Assembly: GCA_964500725.1 (NCBI GenBank)
Contig: CAZCNP010000004.1
Coordinates: 12,139-76,138, forward strand
DNA from: an uncultured Gammaproteobacteria bacterium
Lineage (GTDB): Bacteria > Patescibacteriota > Microgenomatia > Daviesbacterales > UBA10151
DNA: 64,000 bases
Direction: 5' to 3'
A model generated the notes under the pieces. It was not told the DNA's origin. It made no database searches and saw nothing but the letters and a program-made list of their open reading frames with translations. The translations under genes were made by a program, and so were the position numbers. Shown in pieces: positions 1 to 63,983 of the stretch. Each line of letters opens with the position of its first letter. The stretch's first letter is position 1.

Positions 1-642
1 GCCCTACTTTCTTTTCTAAAAATTAAATGGGATTTAAACTTGATAAATAATTTAGCCTATGAAGCAGAAAGAGTTTTCCATGGCAACCCCTCTGGTGGAG
101 ATAACTCAACTGTTGTTTTCGGAGGATTAATTTGGTTTAGAAAAGAAGATCCAAGTTTGAAATTAATTCAACCTTTGCAACTTACTATTCCCACCCAGTT
201 AGCTAAAAATTTTGTCTTAATCAACACAGGAACTCCAAAAGAAACTACTTTAGAAATGGTAACCTTAGTAAAAAATCTTTATAAAAAAAGACCAAATCTA
301 GTTGAAAAGTTCCTGACAAATCAGGAAAGCCTGGTAAGACAATTGTTAAATGTTATTAAAGAATGTAATGAGAAAGAATTTATTAAAATTATTAAAGCTG
401 GTGAACAGAATTTAGAAAGTATTGGTGTAGTTTCTCCTCTAGTTAAACCAATTATTAGAAAAATAGAACAAGCTGGTGGAGCTGCTAAAATCTGTGGGGC
501 TGGAGGCAAAACTGGCCCAACAGGAATACTACTTGCATACCATCAAGACAAAAGTAAATTAGAAAATATAGCCAAATCCTTTAACCTTTCCTTTTTCAGC
601 ACTGCTTTAGGAGTAGAAGGCATTGACAAAATGTACATTTAA
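1..642 (+). CDS. GHMP kinase family protein, C-terminal part (phosphomevalonate kinase-like); 5' end lies outside the window
   Basis: The reading frame is open back to position 1. The C-terminal glycine-rich motif KICGAGGKTGPTG is typical of GHMP kinases. The gene sits immediately upstream of mvk and mvaD. Confidence 0.5.
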   Translation, partial: ALLSFLKIKWDLNLINNLAYEAERVFHGNPSGGDNSTVVFGGLIWFRKEDPSLKLIQPLQLTIPTQLAKNFVLINTGTPKETTLEMVTLVKNLYKKRPNLVEKFLTNQESLVRQLLNVIKECNEKEFIKIIKAGEQNLESIGVVSPLVKPIIRKIEQAGGAAKICGAGGKTGPTGILLAYHQDKSKLENIAKSFNLSFFSTALGVEGIDKMYI

Positions 643-657
643 ATATACAATTAAAAT

Positions 658-921
658 ATGCTGTACATTACTACTACGGAGCTTAGAACTAAATCAAAAA
701 AACTAGTAGAAACTCTCAAGGAAGGTCGTTCTGTAAATTTAGTTCACAGGTCCAAGGTGGTGGGTGAAATTAAACCTAAAATTTATGATCCAAAACCATT
801 TAATGCAAAGAGGGTTTTAAAAATCATTGATAAGCTTAATCTTCCCAAGCTTACTCCCAGACAAATAGAAGCAAGATACAGGGCAGCTATGATGAAAAAA
901 CATGGCAAGAGTCTTTCTTGA
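658..921 (+). CDS. type II antitoxin (Phd/VapB-like)
   Basis: An 87-aa protein whose stop overlaps the start of the downstream PIN toxin. This is the typical antitoxin-toxin arrangement. Confidence 0.55.
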   Translation: MLYITTTELRTKSKKLVETLKEGRSVNLVHRSKVVGEIKPKIYDPKPFNAKRVLKIIDKLNLPKLTPRQIEARYRAAMMKKHGKSLS

Positions 922-1316: not shown

Positions 1317-1703
1317 ATGAATAGGATTGAAGCTTCTGTAGAAAGATTCAAAAGCATCGCCAGGCTTACTGCAAACTCGCTAGTAGAGCCTCTGAGAAGT
1401 TCTGTTGTTTTATTTCATCTCGCTGGTTTAAAGACAGCTACTTATCCTTGGGTTCTACCAATTTCTGCCTCAGCAATTAGTTTTGCATTAACAAAGAATA
1501 CTACTCTATCTTTAGCACTTGGTGGTGGAGTATATATAGCAGAAGGCTTTGCTATAACAGCAGCAAATGAAGCTATCTTCAATAGAGCATCTTGTAAAAC
1601 TGTACAAATGAGGCAAGGAGCAAAAACAATAAGCCCCGAAGAACTGGCCAAACTTCTCACAGATGATAGCAAACCTAATAATGAAACTTATGAAGATCCA
1701 TAA
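1317..1703 (+). CDS. hypothetical protein
   Basis: A 128-aa ORF in the gap before mvk with no recognisable motif. Confidence 0.3.
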   Translation: MNRIEASVERFKSIARLTANSLVEPLRSSVVLFHLAGLKTATYPWVLPISASAISFALTKNTTLSLALGGGVYIAEGFAITAANEAIFNRASCKTVQMRQGAKTISPEELAKLLTDDSKPNNETYEDP

Positions 1704-11596: not shown

Positions 11597-13330
11597 TTAT
11601 TTTTTACCCTGAGTCTGATACATCTCTATTAGCTCTTTTACAGAAGTTGCATCTTCAACTTTTTTATCCTCTCCCCTAAATTTAACTAGCCTGGGAAATC
11701 TTAAAGCATAGCCTGGTTCTGTGCCTTGCTTGCCAGCAGTATGAACTGGAGATCTGGTAATCTCATCAGCCAACACTTCAATCACAATTTCTGGGCTAAT
11801 CCAAACAGATGGGATTAAAATAGAATTAACCCTGGCTGGTTTTTGATCTACTTTAATCTTGTCTGCTCTTTTGTGAATTTCCCTCCATTCCTCATCTGTT
11901 AAACCAGTGCCAATTTTAGAAACTGTCACAAACTCATCTTTATTTTTGTCATATACCCCTACCAGTAGCGCTCCTGCCCCAAATTCAACCCTCTTTCCTC
12001 TGCCAAAAATATACCCCAAAATCACACAATCAATAGTATCTTTTAACTCACCTGCAGAATGCCTTTTTAATTTTACCCAGTTAAAATTTCTGGCTCCTGC
12101 TTCATATTTAGAATCAGGGCGTTTGACTACCAATCCTTCTAAACCCTTAGAAATAGCATCATCTAACATTGTTTGCAGTTTGTCTGCCTTATCTATCATC
12201 TCTCCCCTCTCTACTAGCAAAGTGTCTCCACTTCCAACAGTCTTTTCTAAAATTTCTAACCTGTCTTTAAGCTCTAAATCAATTAAAGATTTACCATCTT
12301 TATATAAAATATCAAAACAAAAAGCCTTTAAAGGAATTTTTTTGGCCATCTCATCAATTTCATATTTTCTTCTTCTTTGAGTAGTTTCCTGGAAGGGCAA
12401 AAATTCATCTGAGGTTGGGTTAAAACCAATTGCCTCAGAGTCTAAAATAGCTGTTTTTGCCTTAATTTGTTTTTTAGCCCCTTCCACTATTTCAGGAAAC
12501 ATTGGAGTAGTCTCTTCTAAGTTTCTGGAAAAAAGTCTGACATTAGCTCCATCTTTGTGCACCTGAACGCGAAATCCATCTAACTTCCGTTGAGCATTTA
12601 CCACTCCTAGCTTCTCAATAACTTTTTCAGTAGTAGGCAATCTTTCAGCCAGCTGTGATCTAATTGGCCTGCCTACTGTTACATCTAATTTCTCAATTCC
12701 TTCCAGTCCCTTACTCCATAAAGTTTCTCCAATTAACCCCAAATCAGAAGTTTTATTATATGCCCCCTCAAGTAATTTCCTTTTGCTTTTATCTCCTAAT
12801 TTAAGCTTGGCAAAAGCATCCAAAATAGTTGGATCACCAATCCCAAGTCTTGATACTCCCAAAGGAATTCTCACTAAGTGCTTGGCTCCTACTGATTCCA
12901 CTTTTGAAAGCAACTCAGACAGTGTGGAAACCTTTTTTTCAACAGTCCCTTCCCCTGTCATCTTGGCAATATTTCTCAATGTTTCAAATACTTCATTTAC
13001 TGATAAATCACTTTTACTTTTTCCCTTGGATTTTTTACTTAATCTTAAGGCTACCAGCCCAAGATCACCTACCATACCATACTCTTTTAACACTTCTTCC
13101 CTGTCAATTTCATAAGCTCTAGCAATTGAAGCAGCCACCAACTTTTCACTCATCCCAATTTCTAAAGGTTCAAAAAAAGGCCCAACTCTGCCTTGAATCA
13201 AGTAAGAAACATGTCCAATCTCATTAAATTCCACTTGGGAGAAAAGCTCAGTTAAAATATCAATTAAGGCAAGCCTTGAGGAGGTTTCTTCCAGATGTTC
13301 AAAATACTGGGAAAGCTTAGAAAACAGCAT
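11597..13330 (-). CDS. lig: ATP-dependent DNA ligase
   Basis: The adenylation motif I KLDGFR appears in the context QRKLDGFRVQVHKDGANVRLFSRNLEE. The protein is 577 aa. Confidence 0.85.
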   Translation of the reverse strand: MLFSKLSQYFEHLEETSSRLALIDILTELFSQVEFNEIGHVSYLIQGRVGPFFEPLEIGMSEKLVAASIARAYEIDREEVLKEYGMVGDLGLVALRLSKKSKGKSKSDLSVNEVFETLRNIAKMTGEGTVEKKVSTLSELLSKVESVGAKHLVRIPLGVSRLGIGDPTILDAFAKLKLGDKSKRKLLEGAYNKTSDLGLIGETLWSKGLEGIEKLDVTVGRPIRSQLAERLPTTEKVIEKLGVVNAQRKLDGFRVQVHKDGANVRLFSRNLEETTPMFPEIVEGAKKQIKAKTAILDSEAIGFNPTSDEFLPFQETTQRRRKYEIDEMAKKIPLKAFCFDILYKDGKSLIDLELKDRLEILEKTVGSGDTLLVERGEMIDKADKLQTMLDDAISKGLEGLVVKRPDSKYEAGARNFNWVKLKRHSAGELKDTIDCVILGYIFGRGKRVEFGAGALLVGVYDKNKDEFVTVSKIGTGLTDEEWREIHKRADKIKVDQKPARVNSILIPSVWISPEIVIEVLADEITRSPVHTAGKQGTEPGYALRFPRLVKFRGEDKKVEDATSVKELIEMYQTQGKK

Positions 13331-55365: not shown

Positions 55366-57693
55366 TTATTTATTCTTTAGCTGACTGATTAAATATTCCC
55401 TAAATCCAGAGGGTCTGGAAAAAGCTATAACCTCTTTTATTCCTTTTTCTTTAGCGTACAAGAGGGCTTGTTCAATTAAAAGAATACTTGGTCTTTGGGT
55501 ATTGGAACGGATGATTTTGACGTTTTCTAAGCCTGGATATTTCATTAACACATTGTAACCCATGGAAGACTGATCCTGATCTCTGCCACCCTCTAATATC
55601 TTCCATACTATCGCCCCAGGCAGACCTCCCTTACTCTGACGATGAAAGTTTAAAACATGATCTAAATCTGAATTAACATACCATTCAATCTTTTCTTTAG
55701 CCAGCTGCGCTAACTTTTCTTTATCAATCCCATTAGTTTGCAGGTTTTGCTGCTCACCCTTTTTAGACAATCTAACAGAAATAGCCACACAAACCAGAGC
55801 ATCCCCATTTGGATCATTATTTTGTAAAGTACCACCATCTGTGGCTTGTTCCCAACTGGTTAAAGACTCCGCAATTTGGCTTTTTAGCCTGATACAAGAC
55901 AATGTTCCTACCAACCCTAATTTTTCTTCAAACACCCCTAGCAAAACTCCATTTTCAGCCCTACTGGCAAATTCAGATAAAGGAGCTTTCAAAGGAGCAA
56001 AACGCTCATTATTAATCTCTGTTGCAGTTTTTAAAATCTCAGTTTCTGTAGACAAAATCTGTCTAACAAAGTAGCGCTTCTCTTCCTGGCCTTCTTTTAA
56101 TAGCTTATCCACCTTTTTTTTAGTCTCAAACCTTTGGATTTTACCTGTAGAAGTCTTTGGTAAACTCTCAAAAACAAATACTTTTTTTGGCACCTCATAG
56201 GCAGAAATTCCTGTTATCTTACCCTCTTGTCCAGCCTCAATAATTTGTTTTACTAGAACTTGTCCATCAATTCCTTTTTTAGGAACAATTGCAGCACCTA
56301 CTTCCTCCCCCATTCTTACATCTTCAATCCCCACTACTGCCACCTCATCAATCCCAGGAAAATTTTTAAGCAAACTATCCTCAATTGCAGAGGGAGACAA
56401 ATTTACCCCACCCTTGATAATGATTTCTTTTATTCTACCAATCAAAAAGAAATACTTTTTTCCATCAATTATTTTAAAATATCCTAAATCCCCAGAATGA
56501 AACCAGCCTTTTTTAAATGCTTTGGCAGTTTCTTCAGGATTGTTTAAATAACCATCGGCCAAAACAGGACCGCTCATGCACACTTCTCCATGTTCCCCTT
56601 CCTTCTTTTCATTGTTATCTTGATCCATTACAGCTATTTCATCATTGGCAAGATGCACACCGATAGTATTTATCTTAACCATTTTTTGATAATCCTTTTC
56701 AGGCAAATCAACAGGCACACCAGCCACTCTTAAGGCAGTCTCTGTTTGACCATAGCCTTGAACTACCCTAATACCAAATGTTTTATAAAACCTTAAAGTT
56801 TCCTCAGGCAAAACTGGAGCTGAACCAATACAAATTCTTTTAAAAGAAGTTACATCCAGTTTTTCTGCTTTAAACTCATCATAGCGGGTTAATAAATCGT
56901 GTAAGATAGTAGGCACAATACTAGTATTGGTGGCCTTGTACTTTGCTGCTATCTGCCAAAATTTAGAAGCTGAGTAACGGGAATTTAGAATAATAGTCCC
57001 TCCTGCCAATAGTGTGGCCAAACAGAATTCAGTGGAGTTGATATGATGCAGAGGCAGCACAATATTAAACCTAGTATTCACATCCATCCTTTGCCAATCA
57101 ACAATACCTAAAGCATTTAAAAGACAAGCTTTAGTTGATAAAAGCACCCCTTTAGGCATGGCTGTTGTTCCTGAAGTATATAAAACAACATAATGAGTAT
57201 CTAAAGATTGATTATAATGATCTTCTGTAGTTTCTACAGGTAATAATTTCTCAAATTCTGCAAAATCAGACCAAGAAAAAATCTTAATAGGATAAATTTT
57301 TTCTATTTCTACCAGTTCTGCCTGCTTGTTGTCTTCTTCTAATTTAATAAAAAGGGCTTTAGAGCTTGTGTCCTTAAGTTTGAATACTTTTCTTTCTAAG
57401 GTATCTCTTTTTGAGTCCAAAGGCACAGTAGTTGCCCCAATTAAGGCACCAGCTAGTTCAAATAACAATACTTCTGGGGTATTGTTCATCAAAATTGCAT
57501 ACCTATCTCCTTTTTTAATACCTAAATTAGTTAAAAATGAAGCGGTTTGGGCTACCAATTTATATAATTTTTTATAGGAAATTATTTGCTCTTTATCAGA
57601 ATCAACAGAAGCAGCAATTATTGCCTGCTTGTCTGCAAACCTTTGAGCATGATTTTCCAGAAGTTGTCCAATTGATTGCAAATCATTTTGCAT
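55366..57693 (-). CDS. AMP-dependent synthetase/ligase (ANL superfamily) fused to a ~250-aa C-terminal domain (possibly GNAT-like acyltransferase)
   Basis: The AMP-binding motif YTSGTTAMPKGV and further ANL core motifs are present. A C-terminal extension of about 250 aa ends ...ILLIEQALLYAKEKGIKEVIAFSRP. Confidence 0.75.
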   Translation of the reverse strand: MQNDLQSIGQLLENHAQRFADKQAIIAASVDSDKEQIISYKKLYKLVAQTASFLTNLGIKKGDRYAILMNNTPEVLLFELAGALIGATTVPLDSKRDTLERKVFKLKDTSSKALFIKLEEDNKQAELVEIEKIYPIKIFSWSDFAEFEKLLPVETTEDHYNQSLDTHYVVLYTSGTTAMPKGVLLSTKACLLNALGIVDWQRMDVNTRFNIVLPLHHINSTEFCLATLLAGGTIILNSRYSASKFWQIAAKYKATNTSIVPTILHDLLTRYDEFKAEKLDVTSFKRICIGSAPVLPEETLRFYKTFGIRVVQGYGQTETALRVAGVPVDLPEKDYQKMVKINTIGVHLANDEIAVMDQDNNEKKEGEHGEVCMSGPVLADGYLNNPEETAKAFKKGWFHSGDLGYFKIIDGKKYFFLIGRIKEIIIKGGVNLSPSAIEDSLLKNFPGIDEVAVVGIEDVRMGEEVGAAIVPKKGIDGQVLVKQIIEAGQEGKITGISAYEVPKKVFVFESLPKTSTGKIQRFETKKKVDKLLKEGQEEKRYFVRQILSTETEILKTATEINNERFAPLKAPLSEFASRAENGVLLGVFEEKLGLVGTLSCIRLKSQIAESLTSWEQATDGGTLQNNDPNGDALVCVAISVRLSKKGEQQNLQTNGIDKEKLAQLAKEKIEWYVNSDLDHVLNFHRQSKGGLPGAIVWKILEGGRDQDQSSMGYNVLMKYPGLENVKIIRSNTQRPSILLIEQALLYAKEKGIKEVIAFSRPSGFREYLISQLKNK

Positions 57694-57699
57694 ATTAAG

Positions 57700-57772
57700 T
57701 ACCAGGGGTGGGGTGCGCGCCCACGACCGCCGGGATATGAATCCGGTGCTCTACTAGCTGAGCTACCCTGGC
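57700..57772 (-). tRNA. tRNA(CAU) (elongator Met-like) with a non-canonical T-loop
   Basis: A 73-nt cloverleaf forms on the minus strand. The acceptor is GCCAGGG/CCCTGGT, the D-arm GCTC-AGCTAGTA-GAGC and the anticodon arm CCGGA-TTCATAT-CCCGG. The T-arm is GTGGG-CGCGCAC-CCCAC, which lacks T54, psi55 and A58, and the D-loop has A18 instead of G18. Confidence 0.5.
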
Positions 57773-57838
57773 ATAAATCCTGAATAAGGGAATTTTATCA
57801 TATTGACTACCTATAACCCACTGGTTTACTGTTAAACT

Positions 57839-59463: not shown

Positions 59464-59535
59464 CGCGGGGAAGTGTAACGGCTGCACACAAGGCTCATAA
59501 TCTTGAGGCAGTAGGTTCAACTCCTACCCCCGCAA
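59464..59535 (+). tRNA. tRNA-Met (CAU), initiator-like (C1xA72 mismatch)
   Basis: A 72-nt cloverleaf with acceptor CGCGGGG...CCCCGCA and A73, the same ends as bacterial tRNA-fMet. The anticodon loop is CTCATAA and the T-loop TTCAACT. Confidence 0.75.
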
Positions 59536-60115: not shown

Positions 60116-60466
60116 TTATTTGAAGAATAGTTTTAACCAGCCTAACCAGTTTGGCAGTCTGATTTGAGCAGAAGAACTAACTCCTAAGATCGTTTTTAAT
60201 TTTTCCTCAGGAATAACTACTACAGTCTCCCCTTTTTTGGCAAATCCTAATTTATTTCTCACCTCTTGCTCAATAAATTCAGGAGATTGTATTAAAGAAA
60301 GCTCTTTTTTTAACTGCCGGTTTTTGATCTCCAGCTTGTAAACTACCTCTGCAGCTTGAGACAGCCTCTCCCCTGACTTGGCTGTCTCAACAGCTTGAGT
60401 AATTAAGTTATACCCTATTATTAAACTTACTAAAATTATCAATCCTAAACTGATCTTTTTGATCAT
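60116..60466 (-). CDS. septum-formation initiator family protein (FtsB/DivIC-like)
   Basis: An N-terminal transmembrane helix is followed by a coiled coil LEIKNRQLKKELSLIQSPEFIEQEVR. Confidence 0.5.
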   Translation of the reverse strand: MIKKISLGLIILVSLIIGYNLITQAVETAKSGERLSQAAEVVYKLEIKNRQLKKELSLIQSPEFIEQEVRNKLGFAKKGETVVVIPEEKLKTILGVSSSAQIRLPNWLGWLKLFFK

Positions 60467-60484: not shown

Positions 60485-61384
60485 TTGACATCTATAACCT
60501 ATAACATTATAATATGTATTATGATTACTCTACGCGATGCACACCAGCAATTCATTGGACACCTTAAAGGCAAATCCAGAGCCTCAGCTACTATCTTAGC
60601 TTATGGCAAAGACATTGATCAACTGGTAAGCTATTTACAAGACTTGGGCAAAACAGATCCAAAAAGTGTAACAACTGAGGATTTAGTAGCTTTTATGCAA
60701 AAGTTGAGCAAAGAAGACTACACCCCAAAATCAATCTCTAGAAAAACTAACTCTACTAAAACCTTCTTCAAATATTTAAAAACATCAAACATTATTGATG
60801 CTGACCCAGCCACTAACTTAGAACACCCAAAATTTGAAAATAAACCCCCTAGGATTTTAACCAAATTAGAATACCGCAGTCTGCGCGATGCAGCCAGAGC
60901 AGATACTAGAATGATAGCAGTTATAGAATTGCTTTTACAAACTGGCATTAGAATTGGAGAACTTGCCAAACTCAGGGTTGAGGATATTGATTTGGAAAAC
61001 CTCACACTTCATGTTCCCCTATTTGAAGACACCAGAGAAAGAACTATCCCATTAAATAAATCAGCAGCTGAAGCCATTAAAAATTACCTTCCCAAAAGAG
61101 CAAAAACTCCAAATCATGCCCTTTTTGTCACCAAAACTGGCAGACCTTTACTTATTAGAAATATCAGAACTGCCATTGATAGATACTTTAGGGTAGCTGG
61201 TATTAAAGGAGCTAAAGTTAATGATTTAAGACACACTTGGGTAGCTTTTCAATTACAAGCAGGTGTTCCTATGACTATGGTTTCAAAACTTGCAGGTCAC
61301 AAAAGACTCTCCACCACTGAAAAATACCTTCAATTTATCCAGGGACAAACAGTTGAAGGTAAAGTCAAATTAGAAGAGCTTTAA
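60485..61384 (+). CDS. tyrosine recombinase (XerC/XerD-like, phage-integrase family)
   Basis: The catalytic region reads LRHTWVAFQLQAGVPMTMVSKLAGHKRLSTTEKYLQ, with R, H..R and Y. An N-terminal SAM-like domain is present. Confidence 0.85.
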   Translation: MTSITYNIIICIMITLRDAHQQFIGHLKGKSRASATILAYGKDIDQLVSYLQDLGKTDPKSVTTEDLVAFMQKLSKEDYTPKSISRKTNSTKTFFKYLKTSNIIDADPATNLEHPKFENKPPRILTKLEYRSLRDAARADTRMIAVIELLLQTGIRIGELAKLRVEDIDLENLTLHVPLFEDTRERTIPLNKSAAEAIKNYLPKRAKTPNHALFVTKTGRPLLIRNIRTAIDRYFRVAGIKGAKVNDLRHTWVAFQLQAGVPMTMVSKLAGHKRLSTTEKYLQFIQGQTVEGKVKLEEL

Positions 61385-61700: not shown

Positions 61701-61774
61701 TGGTAGGCCCGGAAGGAATCGAACCCTCGTCTTGACTGTATAAGAATCAGGTATTACCATTATACGACGGGCCT
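61701..61774 (-). tRNA. tRNA-Ile (UAU)
   Basis: A 74-nt cloverleaf with encoded CCA. The acceptor is AGGCCCG/CGGGCCT with A73, the D-arm GTAT-AATGGTA-ATAC, the anticodon arm TGATT-CTTATAC-AGTCA (anticodon TAT) and the T-arm GAGGG-TTCGATT-CCTTC. Confidence 0.6.
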
Positions 61775-61805: not shown

Positions 61806-63983
61806 CTACAACTGGGCTCTTGAGGCTACCTCTGCTTCTACTTGGGTCACATCTTTGCCAAACTTTAACCTAGATAACTCTCTGATTGCCTGGCCTATTT
61901 GAGGATTTAACATTGCTTGCCATTTTTTCATATCTTTGGTGGTATCCAGTGAAAATGGCACCACTGGTTCACCATGAACAATAGTTTTAATATAAGCATG
62001 AGGAGATTCTATATTTACCAAATCAGCCTCAGTAAAAGTGGGGGAAAATTCATGCTGCAGGTAATTGGCATCAGTAACTCCCACTCTAAAGCCAATTACT
62101 GTACCCACATTACCAAAAACAGCATTTTTTAAATCCTCCCCAATTTGGCCAATAAATTGGTTAGCCACAGTTAAATTAAGTCTATATTTTCTAGCCTCAG
62201 ATAAAATATCTGCAAAAGTATCTGTGGCAAAATTTTGGAACTCGTCAACATACAAATAAAAATCTCTTCTTTTTTCCATATCCATATCCGATCGGGACAT
62301 GGCTGCTTGCAAAATTTTGGGGACCAAAATTAATCCCAGGAAGTTGGAATTTTCCTCCCCTATTCTTCCCTTTGATAAATTCATAATCAAAATTTTACCC
62401 TCATCCATAACTTGTCTTAAGTTAAAAGCAGACTTTGATTGACCAATAATATTTCTCATCATCCTATTGGTAACAAAACGGCCAAACTTGGAAACTGTGT
62501 AGTCCAACACTTCTGATTTATGAAAATCTGTAGTTTGGGCAATTTGATCTGTCCAATAACGCCTAACCACTGGATCAGAAACTTTTGGCAGCAATTCTCT
62601 GACAAAATTAGCATCAGTCATCAGCCTAACCACTTCAACAAAAGTAGCTCCAGGGCTGCTCATTGCAGTCAACATCGCATTTCTGACCCCATGCTCAAAA
62701 CGGGGACCAATAATACCTGTTTTATTAGGATCAAACAGCTTATACATCAAACCAATAATAGAGGCTACCACAAAATGTTTTTGCTCCTCAGTGTAGGATT
62801 CAAGCATGTTTAAACCAAAAGGCCTACTCATATCTGAAGGGTCAAAATAAATAACATCTTCAGATCTGTGGGAAGGAATAAGCTGCAGCAACTCCTCTGC
62901 TGCATCCCCATGTGGGTCAATAAAACACAATCCTTTTCCTGCTAAAATATCCTGCAGCATTAAACTTTTCAAAAGCTCTGATTTACCAGTTCCTGTTCTA
63001 CCAATAATATACATATGCCTGCGCCTATCATCCTCTGATAAATAGACAGGTCTTTCAACACCTCGAAAAACTGATTTACCTAAATAAAGACCAGAGGTAG
63101 GAATTTTTTCCGGGGCTGGAGCCCTTTTGGAAGAAAGCCAGCTGATATAGGGTGTTTCTACGGACTTATTTGGAAGATGCAAAATCGAAGCAAGCTCATC
63201 TGCTGTTAAAACCGAAACCTTACTATACCTTGGCATATATCGGTAAATAAAATCAGTTAAAAATCCCTTTTCAGAATAAACCTTTGCCCCAGAGAAAGAA
63301 TTGTAGGGACCGCTAAATTGTTCAAAAGCTGCTTTGATATTAGTAAGATGCGCCTTGGCAGATTCAGCTGAAGTGCTTGAAGTCACAATCCTGATACTAG
63401 TTTCAAAGCCTGCCTTAGAGAGTTTTCCTTCCACTGCTTCGAGCTGTTTTGCATCTGGTGGGGCTTTAGGATTTTTCTCATCTCCTGGGTCTTTTTCTTT
63501 TTTCAGCCACTTTTTACCAATATCTTTCCAAGTGCTATCAGCTGGAGAAATCATCATCTGAATAGCTGCGCCTTCGTTTACCTGCATTTTGGCCAAAGCT
63601 GAGGTAACAGCAGAAAGAGGGTCTGTAGGCAAGTCTCTAAAAGTTTTAATTGGAAAATGATCAGCGCCTTTTAACTTTAGTTGGGCATAAGCTGTTTCTC
63701 CTACTTCAGAAAAAATATTATATTCAGGAACTTCTTTAATTTCTGCATCAGGGTATGCTCCATGAATTTGTTTTTCTACTAAATCTTGATGCGCTCTATG
63801 ACAGGATATAAAAAACCTTATAGACTCATGCAAGGCCACAATCTCAAAAGATAAATGGGGCTGTGGAGTAAACATAGACAACATCCCCCCAGATTTTCTT
63901 AAGGAGGCAAAGGTGGCAAAAAGTTGTTCAGCAGCATCAATTTTGATTTCATTTCCGCGCGGGACTTTTATCTGCAGAAGCAC
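61806..63983 (-). CDS. HerA/FtsK-like P-loop ATPase (DUF87-type; T4SS coupling-protein/VirD4-like family)
   Basis: The Walker A region MYIIGRTGTGKSELLKSL is followed by CFIDPHGD and the Walker B FYLYVDEFQNF. An N-terminal domain of about 330 aa precedes them. Confidence 0.5.
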   Translation of the reverse strand: MLLQIKVPRGNEIKIDAAEQLFATFASLRKSGGMLSMFTPQPHLSFEIVALHESIRFFISCHRAHQDLVEKQIHGAYPDAEIKEVPEYNIFSEVGETAYAQLKLKGADHFPIKTFRDLPTDPLSAVTSALAKMQVNEGAAIQMMISPADSTWKDIGKKWLKKEKDPGDEKNPKAPPDAKQLEAVEGKLSKAGFETSIRIVTSSTSAESAKAHLTNIKAAFEQFSGPYNSFSGAKVYSEKGFLTDFIYRYMPRYSKVSVLTADELASILHLPNKSVETPYISWLSSKRAPAPEKIPTSGLYLGKSVFRGVERPVYLSEDDRRRHMYIIGRTGTGKSELLKSLMLQDILAGKGLCFIDPHGDAAEELLQLIPSHRSEDVIYFDPSDMSRPFGLNMLESYTEEQKHFVVASIIGLMYKLFDPNKTGIIGPRFEHGVRNAMLTAMSSPGATFVEVVRLMTDANFVRELLPKVSDPVVRRYWTDQIAQTTDFHKSEVLDYTVSKFGRFVTNRMMRNIIGQSKSAFNLRQVMDEGKILIMNLSKGRIGEENSNFLGLILVPKILQAAMSRSDMDMEKRRDFYLYVDEFQNFATDTFADILSEARKYRLNLTVANQFIGQIGEDLKNAVFGNVGTVIGFRVGVTDANYLQHEFSPTFTEADLVNIESPHAYIKTIVHGEPVVPFSLDTTKDMKKWQAMLNPQIGQAIRELSRLKFGKDVTQVEAEVASRAQL

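Follow-up and report, generated by a model that had tools for sequence, protein, structure and literature searches.

A tRNA(CAU) of Candidatus Daviesbacteria, probably a working elongator tRNA-Met, that carries A18/G55 and C54/C58 at its elbow

A 64-kb stretch of contig CAZCNP010000004.1 (assembly GCA_964500725.1, forward-strand positions 12,139 to 76,138; hereafter the window, with positions counted from its first letter) carries on its minus strand, at 57700-57772, a 73-nt tRNA gene with the anticodon CAU and no encoded CCA. Of the elbow consensus (G18 G19 / U54 U55 C56 R57 A58), the gene keeps G19, C56, and R57 only; in place of the other four it has A18, C54, G55, and C58. These departures lower its score against the Rfam tRNA family RF00005 but leave it above threshold. 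Comparison with related genomes points to a locus that is probably a working elongator tRNA-Met, in which A18/G55 and C54/C58 would take the place of G18/Psi55 and T54/A58. Its membership of the tRNA family appears secure, and its identity as an elongator tRNA-Met is held with less certainty. The finding suggests a second way of building the tRNA elbow in bacteria.

Results

A complete cloverleaf with an altered elbow

In RNA sense the gene reads GCCAGGG UA GCUC AGCUAGUA GAGC A CCGGA UUCAUAU CCCGG CGGUC GUGGG CGCGCAC CCCAC CCCUGGU A. Its length of 73 nt makes the linear index coincide with standard tRNA numbering, and a window coordinate is 57773 minus the tRNA position. RF00005 matches the gene over model positions 1-71 of 71 and gives it 51.1 bits, where the gathering score is 29; the E-value, computed for the whole window, is 5e-8. 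ARAGORN leaves the locus uncalled at default settings and, at 95% of its thresholds (-ps95), calls it as tRNA-Met(cat) with the same cloverleaf as Rfam.

A preliminary description of the locus had reported a 73-nt cloverleaf with a CAU anticodon, a 5-nt variable loop, and a T-stem, and both RF00005 and ARAGORN -ps95, the kind of sensitive search it had proposed, bear this out. The T-loop CGCGCAC without T54, Psi55, or A58, and the A18 in place of G18, are all present in the sequence as it had stated. Its observation that both partners of the tertiary pairs are altered also holds and proved to be the key insight; A18 co-varies with G55 (below). The GC-rich T-arm that it singled out is a true feature of the gene, but not a specific one, for the canonical ortholog has the same T-stem. 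No high-scoring canonical call was obtained, the RF00005 score lying 15-22 bits below those of canonical orthologs. The comparison with the orthologous tRNA of relatives, which it had also proposed, revealed a canonical ortholog in the same position and the rewired elbow in eight species.

Apart from the four elbow positions, the expected features are unchanged: U8, A14, G15-C48, G53-C61, G19-C56, R57, the T-stem, and the 5-nt variable loop. The preliminary description leaves unmentioned two more departures, a G1.U72 wobble and, closing the anticodon stem, an A31.C39 mismatch, both of which also occur in the closest canonical ortholog (locus L006; L followed by a number designates a locus fetched for comparison). 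G1.U72 is common to the other canonical orthologs too, and a mismatch at the position of A31.C39 is a family trait, found in 10 of 13 aligned sequences including L006. The single-sequence minimum-free-energy fold returned no cloverleaf (z = -1.6) and is uninformative. On inspection, no alternative Watson-Crick pairing within the T-loop is conserved across CGCGCAC, CGCGCAA, and CGCACUC. Assembly error was ruled out, since three sequencing runs, each assembled independently, give the same T-arm 17-mer, and L024 and L030, from two other species, carry all 73 nt of the gene unchanged; a chance cloverleaf was ruled out by the Rfam E-value and the existence of homologs.

Identity elements of an elongator tRNA-Met

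According to Silva et al. 2006 (PMC1635315), C3-G70 is typical of Met/fMet genes, whereas G3/A3 or C70/U70 mark tRNA-Ile2; C4-G69 together with C5-G68 is frequent in Ile2, and A11-U24 together with G12-C23 marks initiators. The window tRNA combines CAU with A73, C3-G70, A4-U69, G5-C68, and C11-G24, in agreement with an elongator tRNA-Met. For initiators we looked for C1xA72, G12-C23 (with A11-U24), and R29G30G31/Y39C40Y41; the window tRNA has instead G1.U72, C11-G24, U12-A23, and A31.C39. The acceptor-stem marks of Ile2 are absent, and a tRNA-Ile(UAU) gene lies 4 kb away. A separate initiator-type tRNA(CAU) gene is present at 59464-59535. The initiator is thus a tRNA other than the unusual one, and the same genome also uses canonical T-loops. 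That initiator has U11-A24 in place of A11-U24, and A29-U41/G30-C40/G31.U39 in place of the three G-C pairs.

Canonical orthologs at the same position

Contigs that encode homologs, at 69-73% identity, of the adenylate-forming (AMP-binding) enzyme next to the tRNA were fetched (L004, L006, L007, and L008). In all four, a tRNA(CAU) with a canonical or nearly canonical elbow, scoring 66-73 bits, lies 3-6 nt upstream of the AMP-binding open reading frame (ORF). The tRNAs of L004, L007, and L008 read GGCAGCG...GCUGG UUCGAUU CCAGC..., with UCCGAUU as the T-loop in L008. The L006 tRNA (67 bits) reads GGCAGGG UA GCUC AGUUGGUUA GAGC G UGGCA CUCAUAA CGCCA AGGUC GUGGG UUCGAUC CCCAC CCCUGCU A, and shares with the window tRNA the T-stem, the A31.C39 mismatch, and G1.U72. 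By its position and by the features that it shares with L006, the window gene is positionally orthologous to an ordinary elongator-type tRNA(CAU).

L006 is 88-91% identical to those rewired alleles that begin GGCAGGG, and 74% identical to the window allele. From the rewired allele of L012 it differs at 7 of 74 positions, which comprise G18A, U54C, U55G, A58C, U59A, and one compensatory stem pair.

Conservation of the rewired elbow among species

One genome per GTDB species was scanned for the family T-stem and 3' acceptor strand with a non-U at position 54. The scan gave 35 matches, 21 of them tRNA(CAU) genes, mostly from genomes labelled as Candidate Phyla Radiation (CPR), with five from metagenome-assembled genomes (MAGs) labelled Gammaproteobacteria or Pseudomonadales. 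The loop CGCGCAC recurs exactly in eight other GTDB species representatives and on two backbones: GCCAGGG..UUCAUAU.., the window type, in L024, L030, and L033, and GGCAGGG..CUCAUAA.. in L012, L018, L022, L038, and L039. These eight tRNA(CAU) loci and the window are referred to as class 1. Each of the eight has some of the genes that adjoin the tRNA in the window (Nramp, NTP-transferase, Xer, DivIC, TraG-like), the encoded proteins being 42-92% identical to those of the window.

Within each allele type the tRNA is 96-100% identical, while most 60-nt flanks are about 45-70% identical in a forced global alignment, which is roughly the level of unrelated AT-rich DNA. The sole difference between the L033 and window tRNAs is a compensatory change of C28-G42 to A28-U42. 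Across 13 rewired and canonical relatives, both sides have changed in 10 of the 24 cloverleaf pairs; paired cells amount to 89%, compared with 38-44% in slid-partner controls, and none of 500 shuffles reached the observed score. The near identity of the tRNA, flanks at background level, and stem changes that are compensatory together argue that the gene is under purifying selection for a folded RNA and is not a pseudogene. The remaining tRNAs of the class-1 loci all carry T-loops starting with the canonical UUC, with one exception (UCC), so that the elbow change is specific to this tRNA rather than a product of genome-wide drift.

Upstream of the gene, a TGnTAnAAT-type extended -10-like box is found in 8 of 9 class-1 loci 8-19 nt from the mature 5' end (window, L024, L033, L012, L018, L022, L038, and, as TGATACAAT, L030), within flanks that are otherwise unalignable. 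L039 has no such -10-like box within the 30 nt upstream that were displayed. A strict two-hexamer sigma-70 scan returned no promoter, and the box is visible only by comparison of the loci; the copy in the window is the probable promoter of the tRNA.

Positions 18 and 55 co-vary

All CGCGCAC genes have A18-G19, with the D-loops AGCUAGUA, AGUUAGUUA, AGUCAGUUA, AGCUAGUCA, and AGCUAGUUA, and family members with U55 have G18-G19. A metagenome scan for the 5' two-thirds of the family followed by a non-U at position 54 gave at least 120 loci. Further backbones among the metagenome matches listed are CGCGCAA with the D-loop AGUAGUA (L090 and L129) and CGCACUC with AGUCAGUA or AGUUAGUA (L123 and L132). 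Genes neighbouring the L132 tRNA have named homologs in Parcubacteria-type CPR phyla, which places L132, with the indirectness of any taxon assignment for metagenome contigs, on the Parcubacteria side, so that the rewired elbow is not confined to Microgenomates.

Among the 74 distinct well-formed family members in the matches listed, positions 18 and 55 are A and G in ten, G and U in 64, and mixed in none (Fisher p = 1.4e-12); the ten also carry C54 with C58. ARAGORN identified 194 distinct tRNAs in 1.16 Mb of fetched loci. Within this set, again for the matches listed, G55 occurs in 14, every one of which has A18 and none G18 (Fisher p = 1.7e-19). Both p-values are inflated by relatedness, and the count that matters is that of separate tRNA lineages, which number five: the Daviesbacteria Met tRNA, the Met tRNAs of L123/L132 and of L090/L129, the initiator-like tRNAs of L126/L134/L156/L157, and a tRNA-Arg(CCG) on L072.

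Together with G55, positions 54/58 were seen as U/A, C/C, or G/G among the matches listed, showing that the 18/55 exchange and the 54/58 exchange are separable. L108 has C54 alone (CUCAAUC), with G18 and U55, on a backbone close to that of L123/L132, and from its sequence looks like an intermediate. All rewired loops have C56 and, at position 57, a purine (G or A); they vary at positions 59-60. G19, G53-C61, U8, A14, and G15-C48 are kept as well, and a normal T-loop shows the same pattern of conservation (architecture of PMC4810234 and PMC7912444).

The initiator-like G55 tRNAs have the T-loops UGCAAUU, UGCAACU, or UGCAAAU, in which U54 and A58 are retained, and the D-loop AGUAGUA. The tRNA-Arg(CCG), at 753-826 on the minus strand of L072, has the T-loop GGCGGAU (G54 G55 C56 G57 G58) and the D-loop AGUCAGACA, on a contig of 62% G+C. 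This contig (1513 nt) holds six Rfam tRNA matches and the ARAGORN Arg(CCG) call within about 0.7 kb, several of them with A54 T-loops, and is possibly a phage or actinobacterial tRNA array.

Genomic setting

The adjoining AMP-binding enzyme (775 aa) is 100% identical to a protein named Candidatus Daviesbacteria at NCBI, and its next homologs are from Daviesbacteria, Gottesmanbacteria, and other Microgenomates. On the strength of this protein identity, we assign the host to Candidatus Daviesbacteria, a CPR bacterium. The window has a G+C content of 35-41% and encodes mevalonate-pathway kinases, peptidyl-tRNA hydrolase, carbamoyl-phosphate synthase, DNA polymerase I, FtsH, and a class I tRNA synthetase; it is an ordinary CPR chromosome.

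The window tRNA ends 6 nt upstream of the AMP-binding ORF, which is followed by an NTP-transferase/hexapeptide gene. In five loci the ATG of the 775-aa enzyme lies 3-6 nt past the tRNA 3' end, leaving no space for a ribosome-binding site, and for this reason the arrangement suggests a tRNA-mRNA co-transcript in which 3' processing of the tRNA would leave a leaderless mRNA for the adenylate-forming enzyme. The presence or absence of this gene varies between species exactly at the tRNA 3' end, and no match to it was found in the loci L012, L018, L022, L024, L030, L033, L038, and L039. A functional tie between the tRNA and the AMP-binding gene was rejected, as 8 of 8 other class-1 loci have no match and canonical alleles adjoin the gene.

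In many CPR loci, tRNA-Ile(UAU), initiator, and elongator CAU genes are clustered as a trio or pair near the CAU tRNA. A conserved order of the CPR cluster is TraG/VirD4-like ATPase, tRNA-Ile(UAU), Xer-type recombinase, DivIC, initiator tRNA, (Nramp), elongator tRNA(CAU). Conservation of the cluster in relatives indicates that the recombinase and TraG-like genes represent chromosomal synteny and not a mobile element. The widespread occurrence of tRNA-Ile(UAU) suggests that AUA is read without lysidine in these lineages.

CPR-type tRNA(CAU) genes were also found in MAGs with other labels: L024 (CAYQAW010000015.1), L030 (CAYICZ010000011.1), L010, and L042 are labelled Gammaproteobacteria and L041 Pseudomonadales, with 36-47% G+C. 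The NTP-transferases of L024 and L030 are 64-75% identical to that of the window, L010 has the Xer/DivIC/TraG-like cluster, and L042 gave no protein match. The Gammaproteobacteria and Pseudomonadales labels of these MAGs look wrong, and L024 and L030 are clearly Daviesbacteria-like.

Table 1. Coordinates of the features discussed, in the window and in fetched loci
Feature	Sequence	Coordinates	Strand	Remarks
tRNA(CAU), probable elongator tRNA-Met	window	57700..57772	-	RF00005, ARAGORN -ps95, compensatory changes
T-loop C54 G55 C56 G57 C58 A59 C60	window	57713..57719	-	without U54, U55, A58; C56 and purine 57 kept
D-loop A14 G15 C16 U17 A18 G19 U20 A21	window	57752..57759	-	A18 at 57755, G19 at 57754
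T-arm stem G49-C65, U50-A64, G51-C63, G52-C62, G53-C61	window	57708..57724	-	same stem as canonical L006
Anticodon CAU in loop U32 U33 C34 A35 U36 A37 U38	window	57737..57739	-	A31.C39 (57742/57734) closes the stem
Extended -10-like box TATGATAAAAT	window	57792..57802	-	conserved upstream box, ends 20 nt before the mature 5' end; probable promoter
Initiator-type tRNA(CAU)	window	59464..59535	+	C1xA72, G12-C23, normal T-loop UUCAACU; ARAGORN, Rfam; cluster feature
Cluster feature	window	60116-60466		
Tyrosine recombinase	window	60485-61384		cluster feature
tRNA-Ile(UAU)	window	61704..61774	-	normal T-loop UUCGAUU; ARAGORN, Rfam; cluster feature
TraG/VirD4-like	window	61806-63983		cluster feature
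tRNA 3' end / AMP-binding ATG junction	window	57693-57700		
tRNA 3' end / AMP-binding ATG junction	L004	9997-10001		
tRNA 3' end / AMP-binding ATG junction	L006	74-81		
tRNA 3' end / AMP-binding ATG junction	L007	3788-3792		
tRNA 3' end / AMP-binding ATG junction	L008	5247-5251		
Initiator-like A18/G55 tRNA	L126	802-872	-	ARAGORN
Initiator-like A18/G55 tRNA	L156	4036-4106	-	ARAGORN
Initiator-like A18/G55 tRNA	L134	323-393	-	ARAGORN
Initiator-like A18/G55 tRNA	L157	1717-1788	-	ARAGORN
A54/U58 CPR members with the same T-stem	L009, L010, L017, L029, L031, L040, L042			
A54 T-loop example	L009	612-686		
A54 T-loop example	L010	3207-3281		
A54 T-loop example	L017	2191-2265		
A54 T-loop examples	L044-L163			
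A54 T-loop example, Ile-GAU	L072	1385-1456		
C55 tRNA	L033	4318-4389	+	
C55 tRNA	L008	5176-5247	+	
C55 tRNA	L020	5319-5388	-	
C55 tRNA	L045	189-260		
C55 tRNA	L060	3724-3795		
Nested tRNAs	L126	outer from 773 of reverse complement, inner 647-717	-	
Nested tRNA	L157	inner 1387-1458	-	
Pattern match, truncated tRNA(CAU)	L055	start 74 of reverse complement	-	
Pattern match, truncated tRNA(CAU)	L068	start 77 of reverse complement	-	

Other tRNA variants in the fetched loci

Many bacterial tRNA(CAU) genes, from genomes and metagenomes of low as well as high G+C, have A54 in the T-loop, always together with U55 and G18G19. These loops carry either U58 (AUCGUNN or AUCAUGC, in which 54 and 58 are swapped) or A58 (AUCGAGN); the scans were biased to non-U54 loops, and the frequencies are not meaningful. 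In these same biased scans A54 loops also occur in 8 of 99 non-CAU tRNAs, namely Thr, Ile-GAU, Asp, Lys, and Asn. tRNAs with C55 (UCCGACU, UCCGAUU, or UCCGAUC) and G18G19 include initiator-type, elongator Met, and Thr(GGU) species and represent a further minor deviation from U55. The C55 initiator of L033 has a G7.A66 mismatch and scores 40 bits only.

A complete tRNA(CAU) nested in another tRNA(CAU) was observed on the minus strand of L126, identically in L156, and on the minus strand of L157. In the outer tRNA the acceptor, D, and anticodon arms are normal and the T-stem has 5 bp, but the place of the T-loop is taken by a long helix (15 bp in L126) that bears the inner tRNA; the inner tRNAs are canonical, at 72.6 and 69.8 bits. 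The 180-nt region of L126 folds as a perfect double cloverleaf (-80.2 kcal/mol, z = -6.0). Two unrelated sequence versions exist, and the arrangement is thus not a one-off; the outer tRNA may be split, the arrangement may resemble that of an intron, or an element carrying a tRNA may have inserted.

On the minus strands of L055 and L068, the 5' two-thirds of a tRNA(CAU) ends inside the T-stem and is followed by an ORF starting MASIYKRNGKWRVEIRK..., which could be a candidate integrase at the junction of an element integrated into tRNA-Met. At 37-234 (-) of L008, at the edge of a Daviesbacteria-related contig, there is a group I intron (Rfam RF00028, 71.5 bits).

Discussion

A proposed architecture for the rewired elbow

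In the canonical elbow, A58, G18, R57, G19, and C56 lie in one stack, and G18 is joined to Psi55 by a single hydrogen bond; the distal G19-C56 face is read by the A-site finger, uL5, the L1 stalk, RNase P, and T-boxes (PMC4810234, PMC7912444). The window tRNA keeps G19-C56, the Watson-Crick pair on the outside, as well as purine 57, which intercalates, and the flat face on which the ribosome, RNase P, and other partners stack should therefore still be present. A18 would intercalate between R57 and residue 58 and contact G55, for example from A N6-H to G O6, replacing the bond from G18 N1/N2-H to Psi55 O4. The T-stem, capped in the canonical elbow by the reverse-Hoogsteen pair T54/A58, would be capped by a weak trans pair between C54 and C58.

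With the outer platform unchanged, the ribosome, RNase P, and the CCA-adding enzyme could still dock, and CCA addition would be needed because no CCA is encoded. The affinity of a tRNA for EF-Tu is set by its T-stem, and as this stem is that of the canonical ortholog, the affinity should be unchanged. The target bases being gone, the tRNA cannot carry m5U54, Psi55, m1A58, or Gm18, and would have to fold without them.

Several points weigh against the reading of the locus as a working elongator tRNA-Met with these replacement contacts. We infer its expression, its charging with methionine, and its use by the ribosome from sequence comparison, and the A18/G55 and C54/C58 contacts are predicted from covariation and general T-loop geometry. 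The window covers 64 kb of the genome, and a second canonical elongator tRNA-Met elsewhere is possible. The distribution of the rewired elbow is patchy: L004, with a canonical tRNA, has neighbours 89% identical to those of the window, compared with 86-92% for rewired L038 and 56-87% for rewired L033. This patchiness could mean that the two forms are interchangeable or that constraint on the elbow is relaxed. Two A18 tRNAs among the 194 distinct ones, in the matches listed, have U55, showing that A18 does not strictly require G55. Finally, both large scans were aimed at non-U54 loops in CAU tRNAs, by which frequencies are biased and other isoacceptors thinly covered.

The alternation of canonical and rewired elbows among close relatives would fit near-neutral interchangeability of the two forms, and it would also fit diversifying selection, such as escape from a T-loop-directed nuclease.

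Alternative readings of the locus

A pseudo-tRNA, a tRNA-like element with a non-translational role, and an unusual functional elongator tRNA-Met had been offered unranked in the preliminary description; the comparative evidence supports the last and argues against the other two. The alternative that survives best, although we regard it as improbable, is a further one, a tRNA-Ile2 in which C34 would be converted to lysidine or a related base for reading AUA, with the elbow as the mark that separates it from tRNA-Met. The CAU anticodon alone cannot separate Met from Ile2, and the elbow could in principle serve as such a recognition mark. However, C3-G70 is present and the Ile2-typical pairs C4-G69 and C5-G68 are absent (criteria of PMC1635315). 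The tRNA-Ile(UAU) encoded 4 kb away, which accompanies the tRNA in many CPR loci, reads AUA directly and makes a lysidine-type tRNA-Ile2 unnecessary, and in acceptor type (G1.U72 and A73) the gene agrees with its canonical positional orthologs. In other bacteria tilS is often next to ftsH; as weak evidence against Ile2, no tilS was found among the scanned ORFs of the window, including those beside ftsH.

A specialised non-ribosomal tRNA, perhaps serving the adjacent adenylate-forming and sugar-nucleotide transferase genes, seems to us very unlikely. The precedent would be the non-proteinogenic tRNA-Gly of Staphylococcus, which has an altered T- and D-loop consensus, exists as extra copies beside a normal tRNA-Gly, serves peptidoglycan synthesis, and has T-stem pairs that weaken EF-Tu binding. 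The window tRNA likewise has altered D- and T-loops, and it stands just upstream of the AMP-binding ORF, with the NTP-transferase/hexapeptide gene next. In contrast to the staphylococcal case, its T-stem is identical to that of the canonical ortholog, the G19-C56 platform for the ribosome is kept, and the gene replaces the normal copy at its locus instead of accompanying it. Neither the 64-kb window nor the 8-kb class-1 loci yielded a further elongator-type tRNA(CAU). The AMP-binding gene adjoins the canonical alleles of L004 and L006-L008 and is unmatched in 8 of 8 other class-1 loci, and its pairing with the rewired tRNA is therefore not specific.

We give marginally less weight again to a decaying pseudogene whose work is done by a canonical tRNA-Met copy elsewhere. 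The rejection of the gene by ARAGORN at default settings, the deficit in its Rfam score relative to canonical orthologs, the G1.U72 wobble and A31.C39 mismatch, and coverage of the genome by a 64-kb window would all agree with decay. Yet the wobble and the mismatch are shared with canonical L006, and the gene sits at the exact position of the canonical elongator. The same loop is found in nine species whose flanks have diverged to background, the stems alter only by compensatory pairs, and the five elbow changes are identical each time. The 18/55 covariation extends over five separate tRNA lineages, and the -10-like box precedes the gene in 8 of 9 loci. A pseudogene was rejected on this conservation, the compensatory changes, and the upstream box.

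We find least credible that the 3' part of the gene came from an integrated mobile element and that the odd T-loop is foreign DNA: integrases often target tRNA 3' halves, recombinase and TraG/VirD4-like genes lie nearby, and the presence/absence polymorphism of the AMP-binding gene falls exactly at the tRNA 3' end, but the window holds no second copy of the tRNA 3' part with 3 mismatches allowed, the T-arm has no match in the viral contigs searched (on which a phage origin was rejected), the recombinase/DivIC/TraG-like cluster is conserved synteny in relatives with a canonical tRNA (L004), A18, the partner in the covariation, belongs to the 5' half, a part that integration would leave in place, and elbow type is uncorrelated with presence of the AMP-binding gene. 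An element-integration product was rejected on the lack of a repeated 3' fragment in the window and on the chromosomal synteny of the cluster.

Comparison with known elbow departures

As a probable elongator tRNA-Met, the window tRNA has much in common with its canonical counterparts in L006 and L004: the 7/4/5/5-bp cloverleaf, CAU with U33 and A37, A73, C3-G70, G1.U72, the 5-nt variable loop, U8, A14, G15-C48, G53-C61, G19-C56, purine 57, its genomic position, and, as in L006, the T-stem. It differs from them in A18, C54, G55, and C58, and would be no substrate for the m5U54, Psi55, and m1A58 enzymes.

Departures from the elbow consensus are documented in the eukaryotic initiator tRNA (A54, A60) and in eukaryotic tRNA-Ala (A54/A58) (PMC7912444, PMC7566577). 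In these cytoplasmic tRNAs, as in the window tRNA, 54/58 is replaced by another non-Watson-Crick pair with the L-shape kept; theirs, however, is A54/A58 with U55/Psi55 and G18 retained, whereas the window tRNA has C54/C58 together with the 18/55 swap. A 2021 review describes U54 as universally conserved apart from the eukaryotic initiator (PMC7912444). tRNA-Pyl and metazoan mitochondrial tRNAs are functional without G18G19 and T-Psi-C (PMC7609411), and tRNA-Sec is another documented elbow departure. tRNA-Pyl and the mitochondrial tRNAs have shortened D-loops and/or have lost the D-/T-loop contact or G19-C56, and need adapted partners; the window tRNA, in contrast, keeps its loop sizes, G19-C56, and R57, and exchanges the inner contacts only. 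The swapped A54/U58 loops (AUCGUNN) described above belong to the same tRNA(CAU) family, including CPR members with the same T-stem (Table 1), but keep U55 and G18G19 and exchange only 54/58.

No published description of an A18/G55 and C54/C58 elbow was found in the searchable full-text literature, which is not proof of novelty. None of the documented departures joins normal-sized loops, G19-C56, A18/G55, and C54/C58 in a bacterial cytoplasmic elongator, and the tertiary design appears to be new.

Implications

The Microgenomates ribosome has an altered L1-stalk region, having lost helix 78 and carrying an unusual uL1 and no bL9 (PMC9297842), and this alteration may relax one constraint on the elbow. 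A more speculative idea, to which we attach a rather low probability, is that the A18/G55 elbow, with or without C54/C58, is a distinct, selectable structural module, more than tolerated drift, that keeps the face read by the ribosome and RNase P and removes every base flipped out or cut by T-loop-directed proteins (TruB, TrmA/TrmFO, TrmI, and T-loop-cleaving toxins or phage nucleases). Such a module would reflect either an arms race over a single elongator tRNA-Met, with allele swaps and repeated origins in CPR, or a tie to the altered L1 stalk.

G18, U54 (T), U55 (Psi), and A58 have been described as universal or near-universal in cytoplasmic elongators, and those tRNA modifications that are most widespread act on them. 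In this apparently essential bacterial tRNA all four have been exchanged together, and covariation points to replacement contacts. For structural biology, this provides a concrete and testable alternative architecture of the tRNA elbow and, more generally, of the T-loop motif; for enzymology, it provides a natural tRNA that must fold without T54, Psi55, and m1A58. Such genes are missed by ARAGORN at default settings, and some CPR genomes will therefore appear to have no elongator tRNA-Met. The alternation of canonical and rewired elbows in close relatives is a natural experiment on what share of the elbow is really read by the translation machinery.

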